From the sequence record SRR31156797_8580: 52,297 nt of DNA. One strand, 5' to 3'. The notes beneath the pieces were generated by a model. That model made no database searches, was not told the DNA's origin, and was given only the letters and a program-made list of their open reading frames with translations. Positions 7,561 through 29,227 of this stretch are shown here, piece after piece; positions within the stretch are counted from its first letter, which is position 1, and each line of letters begins with the position of its first letter. Made by a program: the position numbers and the translations under genes.

Positions 7561-9456
7561 ATGTACGTAGTAGTCGTTATGAGATATTCAAAGATCATTA
7601 CCATATTTCTCATAACTTGTGCTGTCATCACTCTGTTTATCTTCTCCTATTTTTATCATCGTTATAATCAAGTTCAGTTTCACAGTAATCAAGATGCTAT
7701 TCAGGAAGCTGTTCGTCAGTTTGAGTATAGTAAACGTGAATCTATTCATATTCGTGAGCAGTTGTTTTCGACCGTATCACTGTTGAGCCATGGTAGCCAA
7801 ACCTACAATTATGTGGCCTCTCCGAATTCATCGGCAAAAGAGAGTTTCCAACAAGTATTGACCTCGGTAGCGAAAGGTCAAAAGTGGTTTGTCGATATTG
7901 GGTTTATTGATAATCGCGGTTTGGAGCAGATTCACCTTAACTATCAGCCTCACAACAATAATACTGAATTTGAACAACAAGTTTCGGACATTGCCGATAG
8001 CGAGTTGTTCAAGTATGCCCAGACACTGCTGGTGGATGAAGTGGGGGTTTGGGCTGTCGATCTTGAAAACAATCCCGAAACTTTTGCGACACCTTACTCG
8101 CCAACCATTAAGGTTATTACGCCGATAACGGTCGCGGGTGAAAGGTATGGCTATATTGTGGGTTCGGTGGATGTTTCCACTTTGGTGGATAAGCTTAACT
8201 ATTCTCCTCAAATGGATATGACACCGGCTATCGTTGGTGACAATGGTTTCCTGGTCACTGGCTCTAGTGCTCTGCCTTTCTATGGTGATTTCACTAATCG
8301 ATACCATGGCTTTAACTTTCCCGATTTTTTCCCTAAAACATGGCAAGAAATGCAAAGCGGTAGCTTCAACTATGTCATGGAAGATGCAAACTTAATCGTT
8401 TTTCAACCGCTGAGTGATTTCTTTGGAAAAAAAGTTCAACTGGTGATTCGTTTTACGCCGAAGCAGTTGGCTCACCGCGCAAGCTATGAGTTAAACGATG
8501 TGGTTAAAGAAGGATTTTTCTTCTTTATGATCATGTTGGTTTTTGCTTTACCGACAGCCTCAATGTCTCTTCATTACTACCATCGCAATATTGAAAGTAA
8601 GCTTGCTCGTGCTGCTCTTGATGGCATGACCGCCGTTATGATCTCGGATACCCATCATCAAGTGATCATGGTGAATAAAGAGTTTGAAAAAACGGTAGGA
8701 CTGTCTATTGATGAAATTCAAGGTCTTAATGCGTTAAAAACTTTACTTAGCCACAATGGTATGGAGTTTGTCCTCAACGTTCTCGAACAGGTCAGTGACA
8801 ATAATTTCTGGGAAGGTGAGGTTGAGTGCATTACCCCTGAAGGTGCTCTGTTAACCACCATCATGCGCATTCAAGCGATCATCGAAGCGGGTAAAGTCAG
8901 CTACTACATTACCTCCATAGTTGATATCTCAGAACGTAAAGAACTTGAGAATAAACTGAGAGAACTAAGTGAAAAAGATTCTTTAACTCACTTATGGAAT
9001 CGTCGTAAGTTTGAGCGTGAGCTGACACTTCAAACTCAACTTATTGAGCGCTACCCCAATGATTTTGCTGTCAGTTTATGTCTGATTGATATTGATTTCT
9101 TTAAGCGGATTAATGATGAGCAAGGGCATGATGAAGGCGATAAAGTCATTATAAAAATCGCAAAAGTCTTGTCGGAAAGGCTTCGGACTACAGACTTTAT
9201 CGCTCGTATAGGGGGAGAAGAGTTTGCTATTATCATGCCTCACACCTGTGTCGAAGAAGCACAGATTGTTGTAGAACGTTTACGACAATCCATTGCATTA
9301 GACCAAAGTCTACCTGTCACTATTAGTGCTGGTATCTCTGATCTCTCCAAAGACGGAACCCGTTCATACAAATGTGCTGATATCGCCTTGTATGAGTCCA
9401 AAACATTAGGGCGAAATCAAGTTTCTCTCTGCCTAACCACTGATGATCTTGCTTGA
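7561..9456 (+). CDS. Membrane-anchored sensor (Cache-like)-PAS-GGDEF diguanylate cyclase
   Basis: Two TM segments flanking a periplasmic domain, PAS/PAC (WEGEV...DISERKELE), DSLTHLWNRR, DIDFFKRIND, RTTD I-site, GGEEF A-site; start could be 7579. Confidence 0.9.
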   Translation: MYVVVVMRYSKIITIFLITCAVITLFIFSYFYHRYNQVQFHSNQDAIQEAVRQFEYSKRESIHIREQLFSTVSLLSHGSQTYNYVASPNSSAKESFQQVLTSVAKGQKWFVDIGFIDNRGLEQIHLNYQPHNNNTEFEQQVSDIADSELFKYAQTLLVDEVGVWAVDLENNPETFATPYSPTIKVITPITVAGERYGYIVGSVDVSTLVDKLNYSPQMDMTPAIVGDNGFLVTGSSALPFYGDFTNRYHGFNFPDFFPKTWQEMQSGSFNYVMEDANLIVFQPLSDFFGKKVQLVIRFTPKQLAHRASYELNDVVKEGFFFFMIMLVFALPTASMSLHYYHRNIESKLARAALDGMTAVMISDTHHQVIMVNKEFEKTVGLSIDEIQGLNALKTLLSHNGMEFVLNVLEQVSDNNFWEGEVECITPEGALLTTIMRIQAIIEAGKVSYYITSIVDISERKELENKLRELSEKDSLTHLWNRRKFERELTLQTQLIERYPNDFAVSLCLIDIDFFKRINDEQGHDEGDKVIIKIAKVLSERLRTTDFIARIGGEEFAIIMPHTCVEEAQIVVERLRQSIALDQSLPVTISAGISDLSKDGTRSYKCADIALYESKTLGRNQVSLCLTTDDLA

Positions 9457-14427: not shown

Positions 14428-14460
14428 AAATGGCAGCATATTTTATATGCTGCCATTTTT
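14428..14460. terminator. Bidirectional terminator after glmS
   Basis: 14-bp stem AAATGGCAGCATAT/ATATGCTGCCATTT. Confidence 0.88.
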
Positions 14461-14503: not shown

Positions 14504-15259
14504 TTATACGGTTACCAACTCAATGTTTCTCGAGCGGATTTGAGCCTGAATTTCATCATCAAGATTAGTGTCAGTAATGATATGTGTTGTTTCCACCAAA
14601 TCACAGGCTTTATAGAGAGAATAGGAACCGTATTTAGAGCTGTCTGCTATCAACACTTTTCGATTAGCGTTTTGGATAATATCTCTTTTGAGAGAGGCTT
14701 TTTCTTCCGTAGGTGTCGTAATGCCTTTATCTAGGCTCCAACTATTACAGGTTAAAAAAGCGATGTCAGGGTTAATTGAGCGCAATAATTGGCGGCCATG
14801 TTCACCTATCGTAGATTGACTGCTGTGATCGACTGTACCACCAGTGACAATCACTTCAATCTGTTTAAATTCAGATAAAAACAGAGCGATGTGCAGATCA
14901 ACCGTAATGACTCGGATGGGTAGGTGAATCAGGTTTTTGACCAGGGCCATAGAGGTTGTGCCCGCATCTAGAACGACTGAATCACCTGCTTTAACCATGT
15001 CTGCTGCCGTTTCTGCGATATGTTGCTTTTCTCGCATACTGCGCAGCATTTTTTCGTTGGTTGTTGGTTGATTTGCAACAAAGCGGTTAAGCGATACCCC
15101 CCCATGAGTCCGGGTGATAACACCTTGCTCATCGAGTTTGATTAGATCTCGGCGAATCGTAGCAGGCGAAGCTGCCACGACTTTAACCAAGTCATCAACG
15201 GTCACCAAATTATGGTGTTTTAGGTACTCAATTATCTGCTCAACGCGCTGGTTATTCAT
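14504..15259 (-). CDS. DeoR/GlpR family regulator of the acid-sugar cluster
   Basis: [29 protein letters not shown]; overlaps the pdxA2 stop. Confidence 0.9.
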
Positions 15260-16242
15260 ATATTGCTCAATTTAACGGCCAACTCTACCGACTTAACCAT
15301 ACTTTCAGGGTTCGCTTTACCAGTCCATGCAATATCGAATGCTGTACCATGGTCTGCTGAAGTACGGAAAAATGGTAAACCAGCAGTGATGTTAACACCA
15401 TCATAAAAGCCCATCAATTTCAACGGGATGTGTCCTTGGTCATGATACATGGCAACAACAATGTCATATTGACCTTGTGAAGCTTGTAAGAACACCGTAT
15501 CTGGTGGGCAAGGACCATATACATCAAGGCCTTCTTTCTGCATGGTTTCAATACAAGGATTCAAAATTTCGATTTCTTCATGCCCAAACAGACCATTCTC
15601 ACCAGCGTGAGGGTTAACGCCAGCAACTGCGATTCTAGGTTTATCGAATCCTGCTTTTTTCATAAATGAATCAGCGATTTTAATCACTGTGTTAACACGT
15701 GTTTTATTGAGTGTTTCCAAGAATTTTAATAGGGCGATATGAGTCGTAACATGAATAACACGCAATGTGTCTGTGTATAACACCATGGCGTAGTCTTTCG
15801 TATCCGTCAGTTTCGCCAGCAACTCTGTATGGCCAGGGTAGTGGTGGCCTGCTAGGTGTAGAGCTTCTTTGTTTAAAGGAGCGGTAGCAATAGCATTGAT
15901 ATCCCCTTTTAACGCTAAATCTGTTGCTACTTTAATGCAGCGATACGCAAGGTCACCCGCCTGGGCCTGAACTTTCCCATATTGGAAGTTTTCAATATCC
16001 CCCAAGGGGATATCAAGAACGTTAACGATACCAGGAACGAACGATGCTTCGCTTACTTCATTTATGATATTAATCTGTTGTGGTGACGCTAGATTCTTAT
16101 CGATGACGGTTTGCAGGATCTCTGCGCTACCAATCACGACACAGTTCGTACCTGACAGCGAATCTGTGGTCAGCGCTTTAAGAATAATTTCTGGACCGAT
16201 ACCCGCAGGATCGCCCATTGTAATACCAATGACACCTTTCAT
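15256..16242 (-). CDS. pdxA2: PdxA2 family 4-phospho-tetronate dehydrogenase (D-threonate 4-phosphate dehydrogenase-like)
   Basis: [43 protein letters not shown]; adjacent to a DUF1537 kinase. Confidence 0.88.
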
Positions 16243-17525
16243 TATCTGACCTCTTTTTGTAAATGTTGAATTACTTGGGAAAATGTTGCCGGATTGCCAA
16301 ATCCACCGGCTTTGGTAAATATTGGAAACGGAGTGAGCTCACTATCAAGCAATCCCCATGGGACACAGTCCGCAACGATTCCACCGATTTGATATTCTGG
16401 AGCGTTTAAACGCTGAGCGGTTGCTATGGCGATATCGCCCCCGCAGAGAATCATCCCACCCAGTTGCTGGTGGTCTGCTTCAATGATTTGATAAGCTAAT
16501 TCAGCTAAACATTCGCGAACGTGCTCAGCTAATTGCTTTTGTGATAATTCGTATTTTGCGGCAATCGCTTTCAACTCATGTCTTAGCTCTATGCTTTTAC
16601 AGCTGCGTAGAACACAGTTGTCCCCTGTACGCAAAATTTCTGCCGCTTTAAACGCAATATTTTCTAAGTAGGCTTTATGGTTTTCGGACAAAAGCTCATC
16701 GAGTTCCAAATCAACGACTTTCGCTATTTCATTATCAATTAAGTATTGAGACTGCTTGAGTGTCATTGCACTCATTGAACCGATAATCGCTAAAACAGGT
16801 GAGTCCGTCGTTTTGATAGACAATTCTGAATTCGACTTTTTATTTACTAGCGCGTGGGTGAGTTCACCAGTAGTAACAAAGACCACAGGAACATTCAGTT
16901 GGCTCGCTGCGTTATAAAGTGAGTACAAATCATCATGGGATTGCGTATCGCATACGATAATTTCAGTACCAGCTTCATAAAATTGAACAAAACTTTGAAG
17001 ATGTGACGTATTTTTTTGTTCAGGGTGGAGATATTCAGCTGTCTCACAGGTAGTTTGAGACTTAATAATGTCTTCAACTCGGGACGAGTGAATTGGTGAT
17101 TTAGGATCAGACGCAAATTCGGTTTCAGCTAGTGGTATGTCATTGACATAGCAAATACCGTTAATGGTTTTTCTTTTGGAAAAAGGCGCTGCGATGGCGA
17201 CGATTGCTAGTTTGTAGCCTGTCTCAAGCAATGCTTCTATTTCACATCCAATGTTCCCGCGTAATGTTGAGTCCACTTTTTTTATAAGAAGAGGTTGTTG
17301 CTGAGCTAATTGATAGCTCTGGGAAACAAGTTTTAGTGCTGATTTTGCTTCTGCTATTTCTAAATCTCGGGAGTCAGTACAAATAACACCAACATGAGAA
17401 GAGGTGCGTTCGGTATTCGCTGCCGCCAACAAAACTTTTGTTGCAACACCTGAAGAAGCCAGCGCGACGCCTATATCATTTGCTCCTGTAAAGTCATCAG
17501 CAATGATATAGCTCGGTTTGTTCAT
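16242..17525 (-). CDS. Four-carbon acid-sugar kinase, DUF1537 family (DtnK-like)
   Basis: IADDFTGANDIG, KKVDSTLRGNIG, GGDIA, TKAGGFG; ATG at 17525 after AAGGAAGGA. Confidence 0.88.
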   Translation of the reverse strand: MNKPSYIIADDFTGANDIGVALASSGVATKVLLAAANTERTSSHVGVICTDSRDLEIAEAKSALKLVSQSYQLAQQQPLLIKKVDSTLRGNIGCEIEALLETGYKLAIVAIAAPFSKRKTINGICYVNDIPLAETEFASDPKSPIHSSRVEDIIKSQTTCETAEYLHPEQKNTSHLQSFVQFYEAGTEIIVCDTQSHDDLYSLYNAASQLNVPVVFVTTGELTHALVNKKSNSELSIKTTDSPVLAIIGSMSAMTLKQSQYLIDNEIAKVVDLELDELLSENHKAYLENIAFKAAEILRTGDNCVLRSCKSIELRHELKAIAAKYELSQKQLAEHVRECLAELAYQIIEADHQQLGGMILCGGDIAIATAQRLNAPEYQIGGIVADCVPWGLLDSELTPFPIFTKAGGFGNPATFSQVIQHLQKEVR

Positions 17526-17578
17526 TCCTTCCTTCATGCGATTTCTGTACTCCAAGATTTATCGACTGGATTCATTGT

Positions 17579-17717
17579 AATCAAAAAATCACTTTAATAA
17601 AGCTTTTTTTGATTAAATTTAATCATTATGATTATTTGTGAGCTAAATCCCGCATTTAAAATCTGATTTTATGTATAAATATGATTGTTTGATGAATGAG
17701 GTGATTAAAACCAATCA
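17579..17717. promoter_or_regulatory. Divergent promoter with repeated TGATT/AATCA operator units and a CRP-like site
   Basis: Perfect palindrome TGATTAAATTTAATCA (17610-25), second TGATT-N6-AATCA (17702-17), TGTGA-N6-TCCCG (17637-52). Confidence 0.6.
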
Positions 17718-17736
17718 TTTAAGTCAGGGGAAAGGA

Positions 17737-18873
17737 ATGAATATATTTACAACAGTAGTAAGTGGCGGCGTAGAACAGATGCTGCAAGTCCTATCAAGTG
17801 ATGACCATTTATTACTGATGACGGACAACAATGTGATTAAGCTGGATCAAGTTCAGTCTCTATTATCATCGTTGGATAACCAAGGTTACAACTATACGCT
17901 GATTAGCGATTTGCCTGCTGAGCCGACCAATCATGATGTCGAGCATTTAATCAATACATTGCCCCAGGGCGTTGATGTTGTCTTAGGTATTGGTGGGGGG
18001 AGCGTCTTAGATATCTCTAAGTTGATTTCAGTGTTATATGTTGGTTCTTCTCCTTCTTTGGAGCGCTTCAATCAGCTATTAAACGGTGAAAAGCCAGAAT
18101 CCAGAATCCCACTTGTGCTTGTACCAACCACTGCCGGTACAGGTGCAGAAGCGACGCCAAACTCAATTATCGCTCTGCCTGAGAAAGCAACTAAAGTCGG
18201 TATTATTTCACCGGTCATGCTACCGGATTATGTTGTTTTAGCACCTGAACTAACGACTTCGATGCCTTCTCATATTACTGCTTCAACAGGCATTGATGCA
18301 TTGTGTCACCTGATTGAGTGTTATACCGCGAGTGTTGCGAATCCTGTTGGTGACAATTACGCGATGATTGGAATGCAGAAGTTTTTTGCCAATATCGAAA
18401 AGGTGATTGAAGCGCCGACGGATCTCACCGTTCGCCTGAACTTACTATGGGCGTCTTATTACGGTGGTGCCTCTATTTCACATTCGGGAACCCACCTTGT
18501 TCACGCGCTTTCTTACCCACTGGGTGGCAAATATAAGATCCCTCATGGTTTGGCGAATTCATTGTTGCTTGTTCCCGTTATGAAGCATGTTTATCGCCAT
18601 TGTGAAGAGAAGCTTGCTAACGTCTATCGTCTTCTTCCAAGCGCTGATCTTGAGTTGTCTGAGCCTGATATGGCTGCTGCCTTAGTTGAGTATCTGGAGC
18701 AACTGGTTAGCAAGCTTGGCTTGCCTACCACATTAAACGAAATTGGTATTGAACGAGACCAGTTACCTGAATTGGCTGCTGGTGCTATGCAAGTGACTCG
18801 TTTGCTGAATCATTCCCCGGTAAAAGTAACGGAAGATGATGTTCTGAAACTTTACCAAAGTATCACAAATTAA
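17737..18873 (+). CDS. Iron-containing alcohol dehydrogenase
   Basis: GGGSVLD, VPTTAGTGAEAT, GIDALCHLIE, HLVHALS, PHG; ATG at 17737 after a purine-rich RBS. Confidence 0.9.
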   Translation: MNIFTTVVSGGVEQMLQVLSSDDHLLLMTDNNVIKLDQVQSLLSSLDNQGYNYTLISDLPAEPTNHDVEHLINTLPQGVDVVLGIGGGSVLDISKLISVLYVGSSPSLERFNQLLNGEKPESRIPLVLVPTTAGTGAEATPNSIIALPEKATKVGIISPVMLPDYVVLAPELTTSMPSHITASTGIDALCHLIECYTASVANPVGDNYAMIGMQKFFANIEKVIEAPTDLTVRLNLLWASYYGGASISHSGTHLVHALSYPLGGKYKIPHGLANSLLLVPVMKHVYRHCEEKLANVYRLLPSADLELSEPDMAAALVEYLEQLVSKLGLPTTLNEIGIERDQLPELAAGAMQVTRLLNHSPVKVTEDDVLKLYQSITN

Positions 18874-18882
18874 GGACTTATT

Positions 18883-19758
18883 ATGACTAGCCCAATTACT
18901 GGTCCACACGTAGCGATTGTGACGCCTTTTGACGAGACAGGCGCTATTGATGAACAAGCGCTAAGAGCTCAGGTTCGCAGACAGATTTCTAATGGCAATA
19001 AGATTTTTTGTAACGGAACCAATGGTGAATTTTTTGTATTAAATGATGTTGAAAAGCGTCGTGTGACAGAGATTTGTCTTGATGAAGCACAAGACAGCGA
19101 TTTGGTTGTGACTCACATTGGTGAAACCACATTAGCTCAAACTATTGCTCATGGTAAAGATGTTGCTGCGATGGGAATTAAGGCGGTATCTGTGATTACC
19201 CCATGGTTCTCTGCGCTAAGACCTCATGAGCTTGTGCGTTATTTTCAACAAGTAGCTGACGCGGTTCCGGTTCCTGTTTACCTCTACAACATACCAGCAC
19301 GTACTGGTAACACTATTACTCCTGAAGTTGCGGCTGAATTAGCAAAACACCCGAATATTTACGGCATTAAAGACAGTGCTGGCTCACTGGAAAGCTTGCA
19401 AGGCTTCCTATCGGTAAGCAAAGAAGCGGAAAACTTTGACGTACTGACTGGCCCAGACTCTCTAATTCTGACCGGTTATCAGCAAGGTTGTGTTGGGTGT
19501 ATTTCTGGTATTGCCAATATCGTTCCAGAGCTAGTGAATCAGGTTTATCGTGGCTTTCAACAGGATGAGCAGGCTTTGGCTAATGAAGCTCAAGAGAGAA
19601 TTAACTACTTACGTTCAACACTCTATCCAATCGCTTTCGCTCCAGCGGTTGTGAAGAAAATGATGAATTTACTGGGTGAGGAAGTCGGTGAAAGCCGTTA
19701 TCCAGTTTATTTTACGGAAGAAGAAACCGACAAAATGTTATCGATCTTTAACGGATAA
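18883..19758 (+). CDS. DHDPS/N-acetylneuraminate lyase family class I aldolase
   Basis: IVTPF, GTNGE, LYNIPARTG, Schiff-base GIKDS. Confidence 0.9.
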   Translation: MTSPITGPHVAIVTPFDETGAIDEQALRAQVRRQISNGNKIFCNGTNGEFFVLNDVEKRRVTEICLDEAQDSDLVVTHIGETTLAQTIAHGKDVAAMGIKAVSVITPWFSALRPHELVRYFQQVADAVPVPVYLYNIPARTGNTITPEVAAELAKHPNIYGIKDSAGSLESLQGFLSVSKEAENFDVLTGPDSLILTGYQQGCVGCISGIANIVPELVNQVYRGFQQDEQALANEAQERINYLRSTLYPIAFAPAVVKKMMNLLGEEVGESRYPVYFTEEETDKMLSIFNG

Positions 19759-19796
19759 ATAGCGTTAAAAAATAGCAATAATAAGGATACCCTACA

Positions 19797-20795
19797 ATGT
19801 TAAATAAACACTTTAAATCTGCTCTAAAAACCGCAGCGTTGTGTTCAACGCTAGTTGCAGGCGTAGCGCAGGCTGCATCTACCGCAAGTATTATTTCTCA
19901 ACCACCAGGTAATGGTTGGTATACCTATGGCACAACGTTTTCTCAGTTGATCCCGAAAGCAACTAACGATGAGTACAAAATCAAACTGATCCCTCGTGGG
20001 GGCGGTATGACTAACCCTGTTGTTGTCAACCAAGCGAAAGCAGATTTTGGTTTTGCTACTTCGAATGCGGCTGTGTGGGCTCGTGATGGTCTAACTGACA
20101 TCTATAAAGGTCGCACTAATAAAGAACTGCGTATGGTTCTGGATAATGTTCAACAAGCTTACACCATTACTGTTGCTCGCAAAGGCTGGGTAGAACAGAC
20201 GGGTAACGATACTTGGGAAAAAATCATTAACGCAGATAAAGTAATTATTGCGATGAAACCAACAGGTTCTCAGGTTCCAATTATTGCTGACTACATTTTT
20301 GAATCTCTTGGTACTGATTTCGAAACCCTTAAAGCGCAAGGTAAGATCGTTCAAATGGGTAGTGGTCAAGCTAGCCAAATGATGCGTGATAATGCAATTG
20401 ATGTGTACATCGATAACGTTCCTGCTATGCATCCAAACTTAACAGAAATGACGTTAACAAGTGATGTTACTTATATTCCTTACTCTAAAAAGACTCTGGA
20501 AGATTTAGCTAAAGTTGGTTTACCTACGGGAACTATGCCAGCGGGTACATACGATGATCAAACTGAAGATTATGTAAATCCAGTTAGTGCGACTGTATTC
20601 CTGACTAACTCAAAAGTGAGTGATGATGTTGTGTATAACGTGACTAAATCACTGATCGAGAAGCAAGCTGAGATCAAGAAGACACACTCACCACTTAAAT
20701 TCTGGCACCCAGAGGAAATTGGTTCTCATGACCAACTAGTAGAGCTTCACCCAGGTGCTGCCAAGTACTACCGTGAGCAAGGTTGGATTAACTAA
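19797..20795 (+). CDS. TAXI-family TRAP solute-binding protein
   Basis: Signal peptide ending AQA, VSDDVVYNVTK, LHPGAAKYYREQG C-terminal TAXI signature. Confidence 0.88.
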   Translation: MLNKHFKSALKTAALCSTLVAGVAQAASTASIISQPPGNGWYTYGTTFSQLIPKATNDEYKIKLIPRGGGMTNPVVVNQAKADFGFATSNAAVWARDGLTDIYKGRTNKELRMVLDNVQQAYTITVARKGWVEQTGNDTWEKIINADKVIIAMKPTGSQVPIIADYIFESLGTDFETLKAQGKIVQMGSGQASQMMRDNAIDVYIDNVPAMHPNLTEMTLTSDVTYIPYSKKTLEDLAKVGLPTGTMPAGTYDDQTEDYVNPVSATVFLTNSKVSDDVVYNVTKSLIEKQAEIKKTHSPLKFWHPEEIGSHDQLVELHPGAAKYYREQGWIN

Positions 20796-20815
20796 GTTTC
20801 TTTAATAGCAAAGTT

Positions 20816-20856
20816 TAAGAGATGTATGTCCTGATTCCCCTCGCATACATCTCTTA
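20816..20856 (+). other. Intra-operonic stem-loop after the solute-binding protein gene
   Basis: 13-bp perfect stem TAAGAGATGTATG/CATACATCTCTTA, no U-tract. Confidence 0.6.
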
Positions 20857-20906
20857 CCTGGGACCTTATAGGTAGAACCCATTGGTTCGGTAAGTAGGAT
20901 ATCGCT

Positions 20907-22787
20907 ATGAAATATCGTCATTTTATGAACACTATAACGGCAGTGATTAGCATTGCTTACCTAGTGTTTTTACTTAGACAGTTCTTTTTTCCGGTTTCAC
21001 CGTTGACTGCTGCAAGTATCCACGTATACATGGCAACAGCTCTTGTTTTATGTTTTCAGCCTTTAGAGTTTAAGAATCAATCTCTTCTTTATTTGGGAAG
21101 GGTTCTCAACCTTGTTTTTGTCGGACTGACACTTTCGGTTGTATATCACTACTATACAGCGATTCCACGATTAGAAACCCGTCTGGAAATGATTGATGAC
21201 GTTTTATTCTCGGATAAATACGCATTCATCGTTGGGTTGTTAATGTTGTTTGAAGCGGTAAGACGTTCAGTTGGCTTCTCACTGTTATCTGTAGTTATTG
21301 TTTTCGTTTTATACGGTTTCTTAGGTCCATACTTCCCTGGCTGGACTGCATTTGATGGCTTTACTTTAGATACCATGACAGAGTTAATCAGTATGCAAGC
21401 TGATGGTTTGTTTGGTATTACGGCAAGTACAGCGATCAACTTTGTATTTTTCTTTGTGATGTTCGGGTGTGTGTTCACCATGACTGGTGGCGGTAGTGTT
21501 TTCATTGACTTAGCGATGAAAGCGACAGCGTCTCTAACGGGTGGTGCAGCGAAAATGTCACTATTGGGCTCTGCTTTGTTTGGTATGGTGAGTGGCTCGG
21601 CGGTAGCAAATACAACGTCAACGGGTGTATTGACGATTCCAATCATGAGACGCTCTGGCTATACCAAAGAGCAAGCGTCTGCAACAGAAGCAATTGCTTC
21701 GACTGGTGGGCAATTGATGCCGCCAATCATGGGTATTGCCGCTTTTGTCATGGCTGACATGCTGGGTATCCCTTACGCTGAAATTGCAGCAGCTGGTATT
21801 ATTCCTGCGGCAGCATTCTATTTCGCTCTGTTTGTTATTATCGATTTACGTGCTCGTAAAACTGGAGTTGGTAACATTGCAAAAGAAGATCTGCAATTTG
21901 AGCCCATTTTACCTCGACTTCACTTGATCATTTCGCCTGTATTTTTGGTTATCGCATTAGTTTCTGGTTATTCAGCACCTTATGCAGCGTTTGTTGGTAC
22001 CGTGGTTGCGCTCGTTGCGCCATTACTACGTAAAAACACTCGTTACAGCTATAAAGTGGTGTATCCGATGATTTTGGATATCGCCAAGCAAATGTCTTGG
22101 GTATCTGTTCCTCTGGCATCTGTAGGTATCATCATGGTACTGGCGACTCAATCTAACTTAGCATTTAAGTTTGTTGAGATATTGAGTGCAGTCGGTCAGG
22201 ACAACCTGTATCTATCATTAGTCATGGTAATCCTTGGTTGTGTCATCATGGGGATGGGACTTCCAACAGTTGCGGCATACATTATTGGTTCAATCATTTT
22301 TGCTCCGGCACTTATTGATATGGGCGTTAATGTTCTGGCTGCGAACATGTTTATTATGTACTACTGCGTACTATCAATGGTGACACCACCTGTAGCGTTG
22401 TGTGCTTATGCGGCATCAGCGATAGGCCATGCAGACTCTTCAAAGACTGGCTTTATCGCGTTCTCTTACGCACTGGTTATTTTCCTTGTTCCATTCAGCT
22501 TTATTACTGACCCAGTTGTACTGTGGCAGGGTAGTTGGCATCTAATTCTGATCGCTTTCGCAGGTATGCTAATGGCAACATTTTGCTGGGCCGTATTCCT
22601 GCAGGGTTGGCTGAAGAAGAATCTAAATATCGTTGAGAGAACACTGTTCTTAGTGGCAAGTTTGGGGATTGTTCTGGATAACTCAGCGACACCTCTATGG
22701 TACTTCTTCTTAGCCGTCGCTGTCGGGTTAATTGTTTGGTGCTGGAAATCTTCACCAAGCAAAGTACCCAGTGCAAATCTAGTTTAA
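20907..22787 (+). CDS. TRAP fused 4TM/12TM permease
   Basis: SALFGMVSGSAVAN, EAIASTGGQLMPPIMG, GMGLPT, TPPVAL. Confidence 0.92.
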   Translation: MKYRHFMNTITAVISIAYLVFLLRQFFFPVSPLTAASIHVYMATALVLCFQPLEFKNQSLLYLGRVLNLVFVGLTLSVVYHYYTAIPRLETRLEMIDDVLFSDKYAFIVGLLMLFEAVRRSVGFSLLSVVIVFVLYGFLGPYFPGWTAFDGFTLDTMTELISMQADGLFGITASTAINFVFFFVMFGCVFTMTGGGSVFIDLAMKATASLTGGAAKMSLLGSALFGMVSGSAVANTTSTGVLTIPIMRRSGYTKEQASATEAIASTGGQLMPPIMGIAAFVMADMLGIPYAEIAAAGIIPAAAFYFALFVIIDLRARKTGVGNIAKEDLQFEPILPRLHLIISPVFLVIALVSGYSAPYAAFVGTVVALVAPLLRKNTRYSYKVVYPMILDIAKQMSWVSVPLASVGIIMVLATQSNLAFKFVEILSAVGQDNLYLSLVMVILGCVIMGMGLPTVAAYIIGSIIFAPALIDMGVNVLAANMFIMYYCVLSMVTPPVALCAYAASAIGHADSSKTGFIAFSYALVIFLVPFSFITDPVVLWQGSWHLILIAFAGMLMATFCWAVFLQGWLKKNLNIVERTLFLVASLGIVLDNSATPLWYFFLAVAVGLIVWCWKSSPSKVPSANLV

Positions 22788-22866
22788 ATCCTCCTTTCAA
22801 TTAGCCCTCTGCTTGAGGGCTAAATTTACTCAATACATGAAACATCCACACAATGGAGTAGATTCA

Positions 22867-24018
22867 ATGAATCAAGAAGTCGTTACAGTTGTACGCGATG
22901 GCAAATTAACAGCGACCGATGGTCAGTTTTCTTCAGCGATGCTGCCTTCTGATTACCCTCAAAACCACGCGTCGAATTTATTAGTGCTGCCAAACGGTGA
23001 CATTTTATGTACTTGGTTTGCTGGTACACAAGAAGGTGTGGCTGACATTTCTATTTTATGTTCACGTCTGCGTAAAGGCAGTGATGTATGGGAACCAGCA
23101 ATTAAGCTTTCAAATGATCCGGAGCGTTCAGAACAGAACCCAGTATTATTTTTAGACCCAGACAATACACTTTGGCTGCTTTGGACCGCGCAAGTATCAG
23201 GCAATCAAGACACTGCGATTGTTCGTTACAGAAAATCAGAAGATTTTGGTGAAACTTGGCAGGATATCGACGTTTTGATTGATAAGCCCGGCACATTTAT
23301 TCGTCAGCCTATTGTTGTTCTTGATAATGGGAACTGGCTGCTACCAATTTTTAACTGCACAGTTAACCCTGGTGAGAAATGGGTTGGAAACTATGATACA
23401 AGTAGCGTAAAAATCTCTGAAGACAAAGGTAAAACCTGGCGTGATGTTGATGTTCCGGAAAGTCTGGGTTGCGTTCACATGTCCATAGCTCCGTTAAAGA
23501 ATGGCTCTTTGATTGCGGTTTATCGTAGCCGTTGGGCGGACAATATTTATCAAAGTTATTCACATGATAATGGCGAGACCTGGTCTGAGCCTAAAGCGAC
23601 AGAACTACCAAACAATAACTCCTCCATTCAGGTTACAGCGTTAAGTAATGGTGACTTGGCAATGGTGTTCAATAATATGAGTGCTGCTGGTGCAACCGAT
23701 CGCCGTAGCTCTCTATATGATGAAATTGAAGATGACAGCGGCGCAGTAGAGCCAGAAATTATCGATGGTAAAAGCGCATTTTGGGGTGCTCCACGAGCAC
23801 CAATGTCACTGGCAGTATCGAAAGATAACGGCGAAAGCTGGACGATTGTTGCCAACCTTGACGAAGGTGACGGTTTCTGTATGACCAATAACTCACAGGA
23901 AAAACTCAACCGAGAGTTTTCTTACCCGACGATTACTCAATCAGAGGATGGTGTTGTTCACGTCGCTTACACCTATTTCCGTCAAGCTATTAAGTACGTT
24001 CGTATTAATCACCTGTAG
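22867..24018 (+). CDS. Cytoplasmic BNR/Asp-box beta-propeller, sialidase-like glycoside hydrolase
   Basis: Asp boxes SEDFGETW, SEDKGKTW, SHDNGETW, SKDNGESW; EFSYP; no signal peptide; GGAG RBS before ATG 22867. Confidence 0.82.
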   Translation: MNQEVVTVVRDGKLTATDGQFSSAMLPSDYPQNHASNLLVLPNGDILCTWFAGTQEGVADISILCSRLRKGSDVWEPAIKLSNDPERSEQNPVLFLDPDNTLWLLWTAQVSGNQDTAIVRYRKSEDFGETWQDIDVLIDKPGTFIRQPIVVLDNGNWLLPIFNCTVNPGEKWVGNYDTSSVKISEDKGKTWRDVDVPESLGCVHMSIAPLKNGSLIAVYRSRWADNIYQSYSHDNGETWSEPKATELPNNNSSIQVTALSNGDLAMVFNNMSAAGATDRRSSLYDEIEDDSGAVEPEIIDGKSAFWGAPRAPMSLAVSKDNGESWTIVANLDEGDGFCMTNNSQEKLNREFSYPTITQSEDGVVHVAYTYFRQAIKYVRINHL

Positions 24019-24079
24019 CAATCACAACGAATATGTAGCTCTTCAGTACAGGGCTACATATTAATCGAGGGATACCGTC

Positions 24080-24556
24080 ATGATATGTGGAAGCTTATTT
24101 TCATTGCAAACAGCGGGATTACCCGCTCCTTTCAAAAAAATCCTTTCTTCTCCTCAATGTACGTTTGAAGCTTTAACGAGTGCCGATGACCAAAAAATGC
24201 AACTTGCTGGTGAAGCATGGTTTTGCAATATTGGACCAGCATCGACTCAAGAAGCAGAGTTGCGCCATACAGAGTTCCATAAACTGTACGCTGATATTCA
24301 GGTTGTATTGGATGGTGAGGAGATTATTAACTACGGTGTGCTCAATTGTATGGCAGAGGACGCTATTGAGAAAAAGCCTGATTTACTAATATTGAGTCAA
24401 CCCAAGCTTACACAATCCGTGCACCTGAAGCCGGGCGATTTTGCGATCTTCTTACCTGGGGAACCTCATCAGGCTTTATGTATGGTGAAAGAACCGAAAT
24501 CTGTTCGGAAAGCGGTATTTAAAGTACCTTTGTCGATGATTGAGGAGCTGCTATGA
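24080..24556 (+). CDS. YhcH/YjgK/YiaL family protein
   Basis: EFHKLYADIQ, PGDFAIFLPGEPH, VRKAVFKV. Confidence 0.88.
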   Translation: MICGSLFSLQTAGLPAPFKKILSSPQCTFEALTSADDQKMQLAGEAWFCNIGPASTQEAELRHTEFHKLYADIQVVLDGEEIINYGVLNCMAEDAIEKKPDLLILSQPKLTQSVHLKPGDFAIFLPGEPHQALCMVKEPKSVRKAVFKVPLSMIEELL

Positions 24557-25233
24557 GCCGCCATGCGCTAGTAACCGGTGTCAGTTCAGGAATTGGTCAG
24601 GCAATAGCAGAAACACTGTTATCTAAGGGCTGGAAGGTGACGGGGTTAAGCCGAACTAAAGTGGAGCATGAAAATCCTTACTTTGTCAGTCACTCTGTAG
24701 ACCTATTTGATACCAATGACTTGGTTGAATGCTTAGAGCAGTTACCTCCGGTGGATGCTGTTATTCATGCCGCAGGAAAAATGGTGGCGGCTCCGCTCGG
24801 AGAGTTAAATACAGAAGAGAGTCGATCGATATGGCATCTTCACGTCGGCGTCGCAGAAATTTTGGCAAATCACTTTGCTGATAAGCTCGGAGATGGTGGT
24901 CGTATTGTTATTATTGGAAGTCGAACATCGAAAGGAGTTGCGGGGCGTTCTCAATATGTCGCAACAAAATCTGCATTGTTTGGAATGGTACGTAGTTGGG
25001 CTGCAGAGCTTGCACCTAAGGGCATTACCGCTAATATCGTCGCACCTGGAGCAACAGAAACGCCAATGCTGCTCAATCCAAACCGGAAATCATCCCCTCC
25101 TAAACTGCCACCAATGGGACGTTATATCTCGCCTTATGAAGTCGCAGAATATGTAAACTTTATCCTCTCCCCCTATGCTGGCGCTATTACAGGTCAAGAG
25201 CTTGTAATGTGTGGAGGCGCATCTCTTCAGTAG
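24553..25233 (+). CDS. Short-chain dehydrogenase/reductase
   Basis: TGVSSGIG, YVATK catalytic motif, NIVAPG; overlaps the yhcH-like stop (ATGA). Confidence 0.9.
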   Translation: MSRHALVTGVSSGIGQAIAETLLSKGWKVTGLSRTKVEHENPYFVSHSVDLFDTNDLVECLEQLPPVDAVIHAAGKMVAAPLGELNTEESRSIWHLHVGVAEILANHFADKLGDGGRIVIIGSRTSKGVAGRSQYVATKSALFGMVRSWAAELAPKGITANIVAPGATETPMLLNPNRKSSPPKLPPMGRYISPYEVAEYVNFILSPYAGAITGQELVMCGGASLQ

Positions 25234-25551: not shown

Positions 25552-26319
25552 ATGTATCAACTTGTCGACGCGTCATTTCTTATCGATGGCAAGACTATTC
25601 TTTCACCCACTAACCTCACTTTTTCACCGGGAAAAGTAACAACGCTGCTTGGTCATAATGGGTGTGGTAAGTCGACGTTAGTGAAACTTCTTAGTCGTCA
25701 AAACTCTCCAACTAGCGGACAAGTTTTATTTAATCAGCAACCCGTCTCGTCATTTTCAAACTTAGAGTTCGCCCATCAGGTTGCGTACCTTCCGCAACAT
25801 CCACCAATAACCGATGGTGTCACGGTGCGTGAGCTGGTTTGTTTCGGCCGTTACCCGTGGAAAGGGGCGTTTGGACGCTATGGAAAAAGTGATTATGACA
25901 TTGTTGACCAAGCCATTGAGAAAGTGGGGCTAACCTCGTTTGCTGATCGCTTTGTTGCGACCCTTTCCGGAGGCGAAAGACAAAGAGCTTGGGTAGCCAT
26001 GCTACTTGCTCAACAAAGCCAGTGTATTTTGCTCGATGAACCCACATCAGCGCTGGATGTCGCTCATCAACATGAGCTGTTGGCTTTGATCCGAGAACTT
26101 AATCAAACCATGGGCTTAACGGTGATCATGGTGCTGCACGATGTCAACATGGCGGCAAAGTTTAGCGACCACCTTATTGCTCTCCATTCGGGAAAGATCA
26201 TTGCATCTGGATCTCCTCAAGAGCTGATGACACCTAAAACGTTAATGAAAATATACGGTATGGAATTAGCGATCTTTGATCACCCGAACACCGGAAAACC
26301 GATCAGTTATATACCGTAA
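25552..26319 (+). CDS. fhuC: Ferric-hydroxamate ABC transporter ATPase
   Basis: GHNGCGKST, GRYPW, LSGGERQRAW, LLDEPT. Confidence 0.88.
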   Translation: MYQLVDASFLIDGKTILSPTNLTFSPGKVTTLLGHNGCGKSTLVKLLSRQNSPTSGQVLFNQQPVSSFSNLEFAHQVAYLPQHPPITDGVTVRELVCFGRYPWKGAFGRYGKSDYDIVDQAIEKVGLTSFADRFVATLSGGERQRAWVAMLLAQQSQCILLDEPTSALDVAHQHELLALIRELNQTMGLTVIMVLHDVNMAAKFSDHLIALHSGKIIASGSPQELMTPKTLMKIYGMELAIFDHPNTGKPISYIP

Positions 26320-26336
26320 ACAAAAAGGAACCTGTT

Positions 26337-27230
26337 GTGAAAAAACTCATATTAATGCTCTCAGCAGTAGTAGCATTCAATAGTTACGCATTCGATATTA
26401 CCCATGAAATGGGCACAGCCTCTTTTGCAACAACACCAAACAAAGTGGTTGCGTTAGATTGGGTACTGACGGAAACAGCACTGAGTTTAGGTGTTGAACT
26501 TGAAGGGGTTGCAGATACTGAAGGCTATCAGCAATGGGTGGTAGAACCCAGTTTAAACGCTGATGTGATAAATGTTGGGTCACGCCGTGAGCCAAACTTA
26601 GAGCTGCTGACAGAGATTAAGCCTGACGTTATTTTAATTAGCAAGCACATGGCTGCGGCTTATGAGCAACTGAATAAGATTGCTCCGGTGCTGGTTTACA
26701 GTGTTTACAGTGAGAAGAAGCAACCGATAGAATCAGCAAAATCTATTACGATCTCTTTAGGTAAACTGTTTGGCAAAGAGCAGCAAGCTCAACAAGTCAT
26801 TGCTCAAACAACAGAACGATTAGAAAACAACGGCAAAAAAATCGCTTCTGCAGATAAAGCTAATAAACCGCTTCTATTTGCCCGTTTTATCAACGACAAA
26901 ACACTTCGCATTCATAGTCAAGGCTCGCTGGCACACGACACCATTAACGCAATGGGGTTAAAGAATGACTGGCAAGAACAAACGAATTTGTGGGGATTTA
27001 CTACTGCAGGAACAGAGAAGTTAGCGGAACATCAAAAGGCTAACGTACTGCTTTTCGGCCCTTTAAAACCGGAACAACGTAATCAACTTACTCAATCTCC
27101 TCTTTGGCAAGCGATGGAATTTACCCGTACCAACTCGGTCTATGAACTTCCTGCGATTTGGACTTTTGGTGGTTTGATCGCAGCGCAAAGATTCAGTGAT
27201 CATATTACTGAGCAACTTATCCAACAGTAA
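26337..27230 (+). CDS. fhuD: Ferric-hydroxamate periplasmic binding protein
   Basis: Signal peptide, VVALDW, VGSRREPNLE, WTFGG. Confidence 0.85.
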   Translation: MKKLILMLSAVVAFNSYAFDITHEMGTASFATTPNKVVALDWVLTETALSLGVELEGVADTEGYQQWVVEPSLNADVINVGSRREPNLELLTEIKPDVILISKHMAAAYEQLNKIAPVLVYSVYSEKKQPIESAKSITISLGKLFGKEQQAQQVIAQTTERLENNGKKIASADKANKPLLFARFINDKTLRIHSQGSLAHDTINAMGLKNDWQEQTNLWGFTTAGTEKLAEHQKANVLLFGPLKPEQRNQLTQSPLWQAMEFTRTNSVYELPAIWTFGGLIAAQRFSDHITEQLIQQ

Positions 27231-29227
27231 TGAATACCTTAAAGATCGCGAACCCTACTAACGGTCGATTAAATATCAAAGCAGCAACGTTATTAAGCAT
27301 TGCTGCTTTGATCATTGGAACGCTGATCCAAATAACGGCTCCTTATTCACAAGGGTTCGGCCTGATTTGGGATACTGTTTTTCATTTTGACTCAGCAAAC
27401 TATCAGCACTTAATCACTTACTTCACCTATTTACCACGGTTGTCGGTTGCGATTATTTGTGGGTTCGCACTCGCTATCGCAGGCTGTGTCATGCAGTTTA
27501 TATTGCGTAACCCCATTGCTTCGCCAACAACATTAGGTGTTGCTGCAGGGGCAGAGCTTGGCATGGTGCTTGGCCTTCTTCTTATTCCTGCCCACGTTAT
27601 GGTTCCGGCATTTGTCCCCGCTTTTGTAGGGGGCTGTCTATCGACGCTTTTGGTCTTTGCGCTCAGTTCAGTAAGAGGGTTTTCGCCACTGCATATGGTA
27701 CTCGCTGGCATGGTGGTCAGCCTGTTCTTAGGCTCGTTAAACACGATGCTGCTGATGCTGCATGAACAGAAGTTAACCAGTATTTTTGTGTGGGGAGCTG
27801 GGGCTCTCAATCAAAATGATTGGTCGAGTACCCAAGTTTTATTGCCTTTGGTTCTGCTGCCAGTGCTGTTGCTTTTGATTCTACAGCGTCCTTTATCCGC
27901 GCTGCAGTTTGGTGATGATGTTGCCACTTCCTTGGGTGTTAATATCAAACAGATCAAATTGATGTGCTTATCGTTAGCGATATTTATTACAGCGTCAGTG
28001 GTCAGTGAAGTCGGATTGATAGGTTTTGTTGGCATTGTTGCGCCTGCTATCGCGAGAATGTTGGGTGTTAGAGCGCTTGCCAAGCAGATTATGGCCAGTG
28101 GTGGGATTGGAAGTGTCATCTTGCTTACCGTCGATTTAGTCAGCCAACCGTTATCCGGTGTGGGTGGTGAGCTTGTACCTACTGGTGCGATGACAGCATT
28201 GATCGGCGCACCATTTTTATTATGGTTATTGCAACGTACTAAGCTTCAATCCGAGCTTAAGGCTCGCAGTGAAAGCGTAGCGAATTACAAGTTGGTTGAT
28301 ACGCGAAAAACCTTGCTGGTACTGACGTGCGTGGTGGTCATTGTTTCTCTGTTTGCAGTTGTCGTCGGTAAGAATCAGTTCGGTTGGAGCTTGAGCATTA
28401 ATCCATCGATGTTTGAATTACGCGCTCCTCGAGTTCTGGTGGCATTGGTGGCAGGTATTGGATTAGCTTTTGCCGGTACGATCATTCAGCGTATCTCTCA
28501 GAACCCAATGGCAAGCCCTGAAGTATTAGGTATCAGTTCTGGTGCTGCGTTAACTCTGGTTTTAGGTTCTGTGCTTGGTGTTGCCGCCACTCGAGAACAG
28601 CAAATGTTGCTGGGTACTCTCGGTGCAGTAGCTGTGACAGCCGTAGTTTGGTTAATGGGCCGCAAACATAATTTTGCTCCAACACAAACGTTGTTGACTG
28701 GTATTGCATTGAGCGCAGGCTTAGATGCGCTACTCAGAATTGCCATGAGCTCTGGACATGATAATGCAGCCGCTCTATTGACTTGGTTGTCGGGCTCGAC
28801 TTACTTAGTTTCCCATAATGATGTTCTGTTGTTAGCTATTGGTGTGGCTTTTATCGGAATCATCGCGCTAGCACTCAATCGTTGGATCGACCTTATTGGT
28901 CTCGGTGAAGTCACCGTGAGTAGCTTGGGCATCAATGCAACCTTGGTGAGGTTAGTGTTGCTGCTGCTGGTGGCGGCATTAACAACCTTATGCACCATAG
29001 TGATTGGCCCGCTGAGTTTTATTGGTTTATTAGCCCCGCATATGGCGCGTTCACTTCACCATTTCCGTGCTATACCACAAATGCTAACTGCTGCATTGCT
29101 TGGTGGCATTATTATGGTATTGGCAGATTGGATTGGTCGAGTGGTTTGGTTTCCTTGGCAGTTCCCGGCCGGTTTACTTGCATCCTTGATTGGTGGCGGA
29201 TACTTCCTCTATCTCATGCGGCGTTAA
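27230..29227 (+). CDS. fhuB: Ferric-hydroxamate ABC permease (two FecCD halves)
   Basis: RNPIASP and QNPMASPE repeats; 665 aa. Confidence 0.9.
   Translation: MNTLKIANPTNGRLNIKAATLLSIAALIIGTLIQITAPYSQGFGLIWDTVFHFDSANYQHLITYFTYLPRLSVAIICGFALAIAGCVMQFILRNPIASPTTLGVAAGAELGMVLGLLLIPAHVMVPAFVPAFVGGCLSTLLVFALSSVRGFSPLHMVLAGMVVSLFLGSLNTMLLMLHEQKLTSIFVWGAGALNQNDWSSTQVLLPLVLLPVLLLLILQRPLSALQFGDDVATSLGVNIKQIKLMCLSLAIFITASVVSEVGLIGFVGIVAPAIARMLGVRALAKQIMASGGIGSVILLTVDLVSQPLSGVGGELVPTGAMTALIGAPFLLWLLQRTKLQSELKARSESVANYKLVDTRKTLLVLTCVVVIVSLFAVVVGKNQFGWSLSINPSMFELRAPRVLVALVAGIGLAFAGTIIQRISQNPMASPEVLGISSGAALTLVLGSVLGVAATREQQMLLGTLGAVAVTAVVWLMGRKHNFAPTQTLLTGIALSAGLDALLRIAMSSGHDNAAALLTWLSGSTYLVSHNDVLLLAIGVAFIGIIALALNRWIDLIGLGEVTVSSLGINATLVRLVLLLLVAALTTLCTIVIGPLSFIGLLAPHMARSLHHFRAIPQMLTAALLGGIIMVLADWIGRVVWFPWQFPAGLLASLIGGGYFLYLMRR

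Follow-up and report, generated by a model that had tools for sequence, protein, structure and literature searches.

A conserved gene module that probably joins a pyruvate aldolase to D-threonate metabolism, with Dha as candidate substrate

The subject of this analysis is a divergent gene cluster at positions 14504-25233 of sequence record SRR31156797_8580, the window being the whole 52,297-nt stretch of that record. Judging by conservation of the sequences, the cluster very probably encodes a single pathway that feeds D-threonate metabolism through a pyruvate aldolase and an aldehyde reductase. With moderate confidence, the locus is read as one DeoR-controlled regulon consuming an acidic 2-keto-3-deoxy sugar, for which 3-deoxy-D-lyxo-heptulosarate (Dha) is the best candidate. 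In the proposed route, the sugar acid would be imported by a TAXI-TRAP system and prepared by a leaderless sialidase-fold protein of the BNR_2 family (i.e. BNR), in many lineages with YhcH and an oxidoreductase, either by release from a ketoside or by conversion of a ring form or derivative. A class I aldolase of the dihydrodipicolinate synthase (DHDPS)/N-acetylneuraminate lyase (NAL) family would then yield pyruvate and D-threuronate, a four-carbon aldehyde-acid that an iron-type alcohol dehydrogenase (Fe-ADH) would reduce to D-threonate. Phosphorylation by a DUF1537 kinase would give 4-phospho-D-threonate, and oxidative decarboxylation by PdxA2 would produce dihydroxyacetone phosphate (DHAP) and CO2. 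Every catalytic step upstream of D-threonate, like the identity of the substrate, is one that we infer. On paper, the stereochemical argument of a preliminary description of this DNA is right, in that a D-lyxo substrate gives D-threuronate and the threo configuration is unaltered by end-to-end inversion. That description had also stated that its author knew of no pathway described for the Dha monomer; literature searches on Dha catabolism and on the module agree with this, as no description of either was found in the literature searched.

Open reading frames were present at the coordinates claimed for all ten named genes, and their families matched the claimed ones (Pfam, NCBIfam). The features of the locus are as follows.

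14428..14458, minus strand: terminator-like hairpin (14-bp stem and T run) that ends the minus-strand arm
14504..15259, minus strand: DeoR/GlpR-family repressor (PF00455, PF08220)
15256..16242, minus strand: PdxA2-type 4-phospho-D-threonate dehydrogenase (decarboxylating), predicted products DHAP and CO2 (NF002891, PDB 2hi1/6e85)
16242..17537, minus strand: DUF1537 four-carbon acid-sugar kinase, probable D-threonate kinase (PF07005, PF17042)
17569..17716, no strand: divergent promoter/operator region with three GATT-N6-AATC palindromes
17671..18873, plus strand: Fe-ADH (PF00465, PF25137)
18883..19758, plus strand: class I pyruvate aldolase of the DHDPS/NAL family (PF00701)
19797..20795, plus strand: TAXI-family TRAP solute-binding protein (TIGR02122)
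20907..22787, plus strand: fused TRAP permease (TIGR02123)
22867..24018 (open reading frame from 22813), plus strand: leaderless BNR_2 sialidase-fold protein (PF13088)
24080..24556, plus strand: YhcH/YjgK/YiaL-family protein (NanQ-like), accessory (TIGR00022)
24553..25233, plus strand: short-chain dehydrogenase/reductase (SDR), accessory (PF13561, PF00106)

Conservation of the two arms was assessed in the 80 best of 520 confirmed BNR relatives, with all open reading frames of these loci clustered. BNR was 58-72% identical across the 80 loci, whose hosts included Enterobacterales, Pasteurellaceae, Bacillus, Paenibacillus, Priestia, Negativicutes, Bradyrhizobium, Paraburkholderia and Propionivibrio. 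In 57 of the 80 loci, spanning several phyla, the PdxA, kinase, Fe-ADH and aldolase genes (i.e. the lower set) were all found no more than 10 kb from the BNR gene, and the complete set was found in 48 of the 63 loci having full 10-kb flanks. Six of the 80 loci, mostly on short contigs, contained a partial set. Gene order varied between Enterobacterales, Pasteurellaceae, Bacillus, Paenibacillus, Negativicutes and Betaproteobacteria, pointing to selection for linkage rather than to inheritance of one arrangement. On pSymB of Sinorhizobium meliloti, the same five enzymes surround an Opp-type ATP-binding cassette (ABC) importer and the SDR is missing; versions of the module with neither SDR nor YhcH occur in Firmicutes and S. 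meliloti. The accompanying genes were less constant. The SDR was present in 62 of the 80 loci, usually directly after BNR/YhcH, and was missing in 18, including whole lineages that retain Fe-ADH, whilst YhcH was found in 48 of the 80.

A whole-genome search was performed for five genomes whose BNR locus is without the lower genes. A separate, intact lower cluster with the layout DeoR (or PrpR)-PdxA2-kinase/Fe-ADH-aldolase was present in four of these (three Pantoea and Bacillus swezeyi), and in one Pantoea it lay ~375 kb away on the same contig. A sample independent of the BNR loci consisted of 201 genomes of the order, evenly drawn around a Pectobacterium genome, and was searched with thresholds set to exclude housekeeping DapA and PdxA (BNR, E<=1e-80; aldolase, E<=1e-60; PdxA2, E<=1e-110). 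BNR, the cluster-type aldolase and PdxA2 were detected in an identical set of four genomes, consisting of the centre and three more, and the remaining 197 had none of them. In a class-level sample, the module was present in 0 of 150 genomes besides the centre, indicating that it is a rare accessory trait. Linkage, split genomes, co-occurrence and the operator motif described below bear out the earlier proposal that the two arms act as one unit. Three findings weigh against such a unit: in 17 of the 80 loci all four lower genes are missing from the vicinity of BNR, the fifth split genome (Bradyrhizobium) gave no clear result, and the three non-centre positives may be related to each other and therefore do not amount to three independent events.

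A rival reading is that two unrelated operons, a sialic-acid-like set (BNR, YhcH, NanA-like lyase and transporter) and a D-threonate set, merely adjoin one another. Sialic acid catabolism employs the NanA lyase, the NanQ/YhcH anomerase, a sialidase and SiaT/TRAP uptake, and there is a 2,7-anhydro-N-acetylneuraminic acid route with NanOx/YjhC. The locus resembles this system in its sialidase fold, YhcH, class I pyruvate lyase, SSF/TRAP import and oxidoreductase beside a sialidase-like gene; the families are nan-like at the Pfam level, and BNR-SDR operons do stand alone in those 17 loci. The aldolase falls below both NanA cut-offs (NF003164, 131.6 versus 281 bits; TIGR00683, 106.1 versus 382), and YhcH passes its family model (TIGR00022, 100.9 versus 45.5) but does not reach the NanQ equivalog NF040884 (110.1 versus 160 bits). 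No nanK or nanE was found among the annotated window genes, the BNR protein is cytoplasmic with at least one canonical catalytic residue changed, and a C4 acid rather than N-acetylmannosamine would be handled downstream. Both sets occur in the same four of 201 genomes and in no others, their linkage survives rearrangement across phyla, and the aldolase goes with the D-threonate arm when the module splits. Two unrelated operons are thus considered very improbable.

Genes within each arm are closely packed: in the minus arm, the kinase and PdxA2 genes overlap by 1 base and the PdxA2 and DeoR genes by 4 bases, and in the plus arm the intergenic gaps are 9-111 bases with a 4-base overlap of YhcH and SDR. 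Palindromes are located at 17569, 17611 and 17703 in the divergent intergenic region, one of which is a perfect 16-bp palindrome (i.e. TGATTAAATTTAATCA). The motif GATT-N6-AATC has only three matches across the 52 kb of the window, all of them between the two arms. Having been derived from the window, this motif was then sought in other loci with the divergent kinase/Fe-ADH arrangement, and it was present in all 43 such intergenic regions (window included), at a density of 5.9 per kb as compared to 0.12 per kb across the loci. A DeoR protein with 59-70% identity was found in 52 of the 80 related loci. The palindrome, shared by 43 of 43 divergent regions, fits a scheme in which the DeoR-family repressor, itself co-conserved and the probable regulator, controls both arms. 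Matches to both arms were also found in a seawater metatranscriptome (X1), as low-depth short contigs covering 19 of 30 bins with 90-99% identity; these are contigs of an RNA library, which show neither expression level nor induction, and they were not counted as support.

The PdxA2/kinase pair is supported as a D-threonate pair by comparison with equivalog models and solved structures, as the preliminary description had supposed. The pair of DtnK and PdxA2, in work by Zhang et al. in 2016 (PNAS 113:E4161), reportedly converts D-threonate to DHAP and CO2. The window PdxA2 is of this type, with full-length matches to 2hi1 (Salmonella PdxA2; E 3.1e-150) and 6e85 ('D-threonate 4-phosphate dehydrogenase'; E 1.4e-144), and its orthologue in the Pectobacterium cluster (67% identical) passes the NF002891 cut-off (682 versus 583). 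For the window kinase, the best equivalog model is DtnK (OtnK scores 124) and PDB 4xfm is matched with an E of 1.5e-66. Kinases of the same cluster pass the DtnK cut-off of 450 in Pectobacterium (613), Klebsiella (519) and Necropsobacter (455.5), and fall below it in B. pumilus (327) and Paenibacillus (291.5). In the Escherichia coli version of the module, which forms a genomic island, PGAP names dtnK and a D-threonate-4-P dehydrogenase. Evidence counting against the assignment comes from the window proteins themselves. The window PdxA2 scored 573.9 bits with NF002891, 9 bits short of the cut-off of 583; the kinase did not reach the DtnK model NF047819 (385.2 versus 450 bits) and is only 31-36% identical to Enterobacterales DtnK as compared to 44-72% for the other module proteins. 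The latter pattern looks like displacement by another DUF1537 lineage, and for such a divergent kinase the assignment therefore rests on context. For the kinase, the likeliest start codon is an ATG, at 17525 or at 17537, preceded by the ribosome-binding site GAAGGA, and not the TTG of position 17555.

The locus shares with the published DtnK/PdxA2 pair its two families, encoded side by side with translational coupling and a DeoR regulator alongside; the D-threonate work of Zhang et al. (2016) is summarised in PMC10971088. The difference is that the pair here comes last in a more extensive conserved module (transporter, BNR, aldolase and Fe-ADH, in some cases also YhcH and SDR), by which D-threonate would be generated intracellularly from a sugar acid of greater size. 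In a Paraburkholderia locus (L074:5878-8376), the DUF1537 kinase and PdxA form one 832-residue fusion protein within the module. Another function has been put forward for these genes: in PMC12928451, a paper of 2026, the E. coli island (nagE..glnS) appears under 'uncharacterized features' and a role in pyridoxal phosphate (PLP) metabolism is suggested for the PdxA2/DUF1537 pair. Membership of the PdxA family is in line with synthesis or salvage of vitamin B6. Such a role is highly unlikely for the module, as the pair is embedded in a catabolic operon with a transporter and an aldolase under a DeoR repressor, was found as an accessory trait in four of 201 sampled genomes, and has orthologues that pass D-threonate equivalog cut-offs, unlike housekeeping PdxA.

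Upstream of D-threonate, the aldolase exhibits the marks of the DHDPS/NAL superfamily, namely the Schiff-base Lys, the catalytic Tyr and the G-x-x-G-E motif. Lys163 (Schiff base), Tyr135, Thr46 and Glu49 were invariant in all 62 cluster members and aligned with solved DHDPS, and the segment YNIPARTG aligned with YNIPGRS, YNIPPRS and YNVPGRTG of three solved DHDPS structures. The protein nevertheless scored below the cut-offs for DapA (TIGR00674, 174.4 versus 206 bits) and for 2,4-dihydroxyhept-2-ene-1,7-dioate aldolase (TIGR02313, 116 versus 397). R140, the equivalent of DHDPS Arg138, was Arg in 58 and Lys in four of the 62 cluster aldolases. In DHDPS, the substrate aspartate semialdehyde, itself a C4 aldehyde-acid, has its carboxylate bound by this Arg, and NAL and the sialic acid lyases have Leu there; retention of a basic residue is what a C4 aldehyde-acid partner, threuronate for example, would lead one to expect. 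DHDPS and the TIGR02313 aldolase are likewise class I pyruvate enzymes with a C4 aldehyde-acid partner (i.e. aspartate or succinate semialdehyde), and the cluster aldolase retains the Lys that forms the Schiff base, together with the Tyr and the YN(I/V)PxRT Arg. It differs from DHDPS in having Phe at the Tyr107-equivalent position in 61 of 62 members and GTNGE in place of GTTGE, and in its catabolic genomic context.

The Fe-ADH reached no equivalog model, and its partial matches in NCBIfam include 4-hydroxybutyrate dehydrogenase and lactaldehyde reductase. The former enzyme interconverts succinate semialdehyde and 4-hydroxybutyrate, a reaction that is the deoxy analogue of the proposed conversion of threuronate to threonate. 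Fe-ADH and aldolase genes were always paired, both being present in 61 of the 80 loci. This invariable pairing and the retained DHDPS-type basic residue fit the previously suggested order of pyruvate aldolase, aldehyde reductase and D-threonate. An alternative raised in the preliminary description, in which a 3-deoxy-heptulosonate (e.g. 3-deoxy-D-arabino-heptulosonate, DAH) would be cleaved into pyruvate plus a tetrose, itself oxidised by the SDR to a tetronate for the kinase/PdxA2 pair, loses ground on the same evidence. Its carbon arithmetic works, and an SDR is present in the window and 62 of the 80 loci. However, no SDR accompanies the pathway in 18 loci, some from lineages keeping Fe-ADH, or in S. 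meliloti, Fe-ADH would be left without a role, a basic residue suits a carboxylate on the aldehyde partner, and carrier classes for di- or tricarboxylates recur beside the module. Cleavage to a tetrose is accordingly regarded as improbable.

The preferred sequence of cleavage, reduction and phosphorylation has a precedent in D-glucarate/galactarate catabolism, which proceeds through the GarL aldolase, the GarR tartronate-semialdehyde reductase and the GarK glycerate kinase. In both, a keto-deoxy-aldaric acid would be cleaved to pyruvate and an aldehyde-acid, which is reduced to a hydroxy acid and phosphorylated. The substrate is C6 in the Gar pathway and would be C7 here; a class II aldolase and a reductase of the beta-hydroxyacid dehydrogenase type are replaced by a class I DHDPS-family aldolase and Fe-ADH, and the kinase here is of the DUF1537 type, with an extra decarboxylation by PdxA2 thereafter.

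The nature of the substrate was addressed through the transporters and the genes surrounding the module. The TAXI binding protein and the fused permease of the window both pass their family models (TIGR02122, 129.6 versus 84.35; TIGR02123, 492.4 versus 320.65), and in Testudinibacter (L002) proteins with 71% and 79% identity, respectively, are found, the TAXI protein in the same position beside BNR. Comparison of the binding protein with PDB returned only remote relatives and no ligand hint. Carriers beside BNR belonged to the SSF family in 62 of the 80 loci, to CitMHS/SLC13 in seven and to TTT in four. Those of the window and Testudinibacter are TAXI-TRAP systems, whilst S. meliloti, Veillonellaceae and a group of fusion loci described below have ABC importers of the Opp type. 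Di- or tricarboxylates are the typical cargo of several of these classes. A GH28 protein that lacks a leader and forms one orthologous cluster adjoins the module in seven of the 80 loci from two phyla (e.g. L040:1848-3191 and L063:1443-2834, and five more), the hosts being four Pantoea/Erwinia and three Bacillus pumilus-group loci, the latter with an altronate dehydratase next to it. The transporter types and the neighbouring GH28 fit a pectic dicarboxylic sugar acid. Plasmid-borne copies of the module were identified in 334 records, mainly from Rhizobium, Sinorhizobium, Pantoea, Ralstonia and Agrobacterium.

Dha occurs in the pectin rhamnogalacturonan II (RG-II) and, according to PMC10762512 and PMC3355719, also in prasinophyte scales and the Tetraselmis theca, which makes a marine host plausible. 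According to a 2026 preprint, brief heating frees side chain D (arabinofuranose-Dha) from an RG-II fragment. A pectinesterase gene ~8 kb from the locus had been cited as a further sign of pectin use, a suggestion that was not upheld. The gene lies inside an iron-uptake island, the 80 related loci contained no pectinesterase homologue close to the module, and the gene is therefore not evidence for pectin; the GH28 adjoining the module is the better link.

The BNR protein is the most conserved member of the module and part of its core. Alignment with 16 orthologues re-placed its start at Met19 (22867), and the protein has no signal peptide, so that the label 'cytoplasmic' given to it earlier holds. 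An AlphaFold2 model (predicted local distance difference test score 81.6) was compared using Foldseek and matched GH33 sialidases (E 6.5e-15 to 1e-13; template modelling score 0.59-0.67; 11-16% identity), and it has the six-bladed beta-propeller with Asp boxes that characterises GH33. The ESM Atlas returned 'sialidase family' clusters only. Four S-x-D-x-G-x-x-W Asp boxes, ten Arg, three Cys and three His were invariant over 79 sequences, and H52, D78, C220, H222, R238, R240 and Y371 are among the invariant positions. With HMMER, a single stretch aligned with sialidases of known structure, the N- and C-terminal thirds giving no sialidase alignment against PDB; within it, R238 aligned with the second triad Arg of NanB/NanC. 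The catalytic, Tyr-paired Glu of NanB/NanC lies in '..vEL.dG'; the corresponding position in BNR follows an invariant GCVHM.

A sialidase-like fold has been tied to Dha in another setting. In PMC6811678 and PMC13501991, the N-terminal domain of BT1020 (the GH143 Dha-hydrolase) and the hydrolase domain of BT1013 for Kdo (3-deoxy-D-manno-octulosonate), from the RG-II loci of Bacteroides thetaiotaomicron, are sialidase-like propellers, and the former describes GH143 as having five-fold propeller symmetry with the Tyr-Glu pair retained. The likeness is that of a sialidase-like propeller acting on ketosides of RG-II to the sialidase fold found here. GH143, compared here by description, differs in that it belongs to polysaccharide-degrading loci, whereas BNR is leaderless and best aligned with six-bladed GH33; no entry title for BT1020 stood out among the Foldseek matches listed for BNR.

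Dha remains the best available inference for the substrate, a judgement that we regard as finely balanced. The evidence on the opposing side concerns BNR, the carriers and Dha itself. At the position of the Tyr-paired Glu, BNR has Thr in the profile consensus, Ala in the window and Thr, Ala or Ser overall; an RIP motif could not be discerned, and the first of the long strands bears an invariant QNHAxN. A classical ketosidase role is thus doubtful, because the paired Glu is replaced and no RIP motif is seen. BNR is nonetheless a core member of the module, and free Dha would not need a glycosidase. SSF, TRAP and SLC13 carriers suggest a monomer and the Opp-type ABC importers a larger compound, and Dha is a minor component of pectin.

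These features leave some room, which we judge possible but less than probable, for the same pathway logic acting on another acidic keto-deoxy sugar or derivative. Candidates are a relative of Dha in modified, lactonised, unsaturated or glycosylated form and a ulosaric acid of plant or microbial origin that has yet to be described; BNR and the oxidoreductase would convert such a compound into the substrate of the aldolase. The altered catalytic set of a core protein and the wide variety of transporter classes would suit such a substrate. So would the almost constant presence of an oxidoreductase after BNR, either as SDR (62 of 80) or as a flavoprotein fusion in four metagenome loci. In these (L099:4122-6917, L100, L101 and L102), a flavoprotein of the fumarate-reductase/succinate-dehydrogenase type (PF00890, PF02910) is fused to a BNR domain that is 56% identical to the window BNR. 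The fusion proteins have 931-940 residues and are encoded behind a PrpR-type sigma-54 activator, as in Bacillus and Paenibacillus, and Opp-type ABC ATPases; the contigs end before any lower-pathway genes. Together with the SDR, the fusions give no more than a hint that BNR has a redox partner and that the two act on the sugar acid in a derivatised or bound state. A D-isomer 2-hydroxyacid dehydrogenase that joins the lower module after the aldolase in six of the 80 loci and in the three split Pantoea genomes (L089, L090 and L091) is in keeping with a different or modified substrate; the same dehydrogenase is found in L039 and L064 (Pasteurellaceae and Negativicutes), and in L091 one or more MFS carriers lie alongside. 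On the other side, we know of no other natural C7 2-keto-3-deoxy-aldaric acid, the Firmicute and S. meliloti versions function without SDR and YhcH, and the pectin-associated GH28 and plant-associated hosts fit Dha.

A more speculative proposal, to which we give little more than tentative credence, is that BNR is a non-glycosidase, a novel type of enzyme on a sialidase scaffold in which His and Cys replace canonical catalytic residues and ten Arg are invariant, and which, together with the SDR or the fused flavoprotein, would turn a natural Dha derivative into the open keto-acid. The module would then be a missing route that accounts for the origin of bacterial D-threonate and allows bacteria of plants, the gut and the sea to mineralise Dha from pectic RG-II and from the scales of prasinophytes. 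If Dha is indeed the substrate, the module would provide a natural feedstock for the published D-threonate pathway and a catabolic route for a rare sugar found in green-algal scales and in the plant polysaccharide of greatest complexity. Such a pathway would also assign a function to a conserved module of many plant-associated bacteria, bee-gut Gilliamella and an E. coli island, and would set apart a new subfamily of sialidase-fold proteins.

The host of the window is Vibrio-like, the top BNR matches being from Vibrio tritonius, V. litoralis and V. natriegens (88-92% identity). In E. coli, the island was present in 1048 of 5426 complete genomes; there, a TerC-family membrane protein (L096:8689-9447) lies between the aldolase and BNR, and a terminal SLC13 permease replaces SSF/TRAP. 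Positions 25552-52297 of the window are taken up by one large island for acquisition of iron and siderophores, which encodes three each of FecCD-type ABC systems and TonB-dependent receptors, an enterochelin-esterase-like protein, a siderophore-interacting protein and ExbB/TonB. The pectinesterase is an 862-residue pectinesterase-GDSL protein with a signal peptide (32786-35374, minus strand), oddly embedded in this island, and is separated from the module by a siderophore ABC importer, a GntR regulator and a TonB-dependent receptor. A FecCD-type (ferric-citrate-type) ABC importer was considered as a shared neighbour of the module in the window (25552-29227) and the B. pumilus group (L063:3008-6265); with 30-38% identity and unrelated binding proteins, the likeness is merely generic and probably a coincidence. 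Upstream of the locus are housekeeping genes (i.e. epd-like GAPDH, pgk, fba, mscS, pykF and glmS), and a sensor diguanylate cyclase with a Cache-like sensor, PAS and GGDEF domains is encoded at 7561-9456, upstream of pykF.

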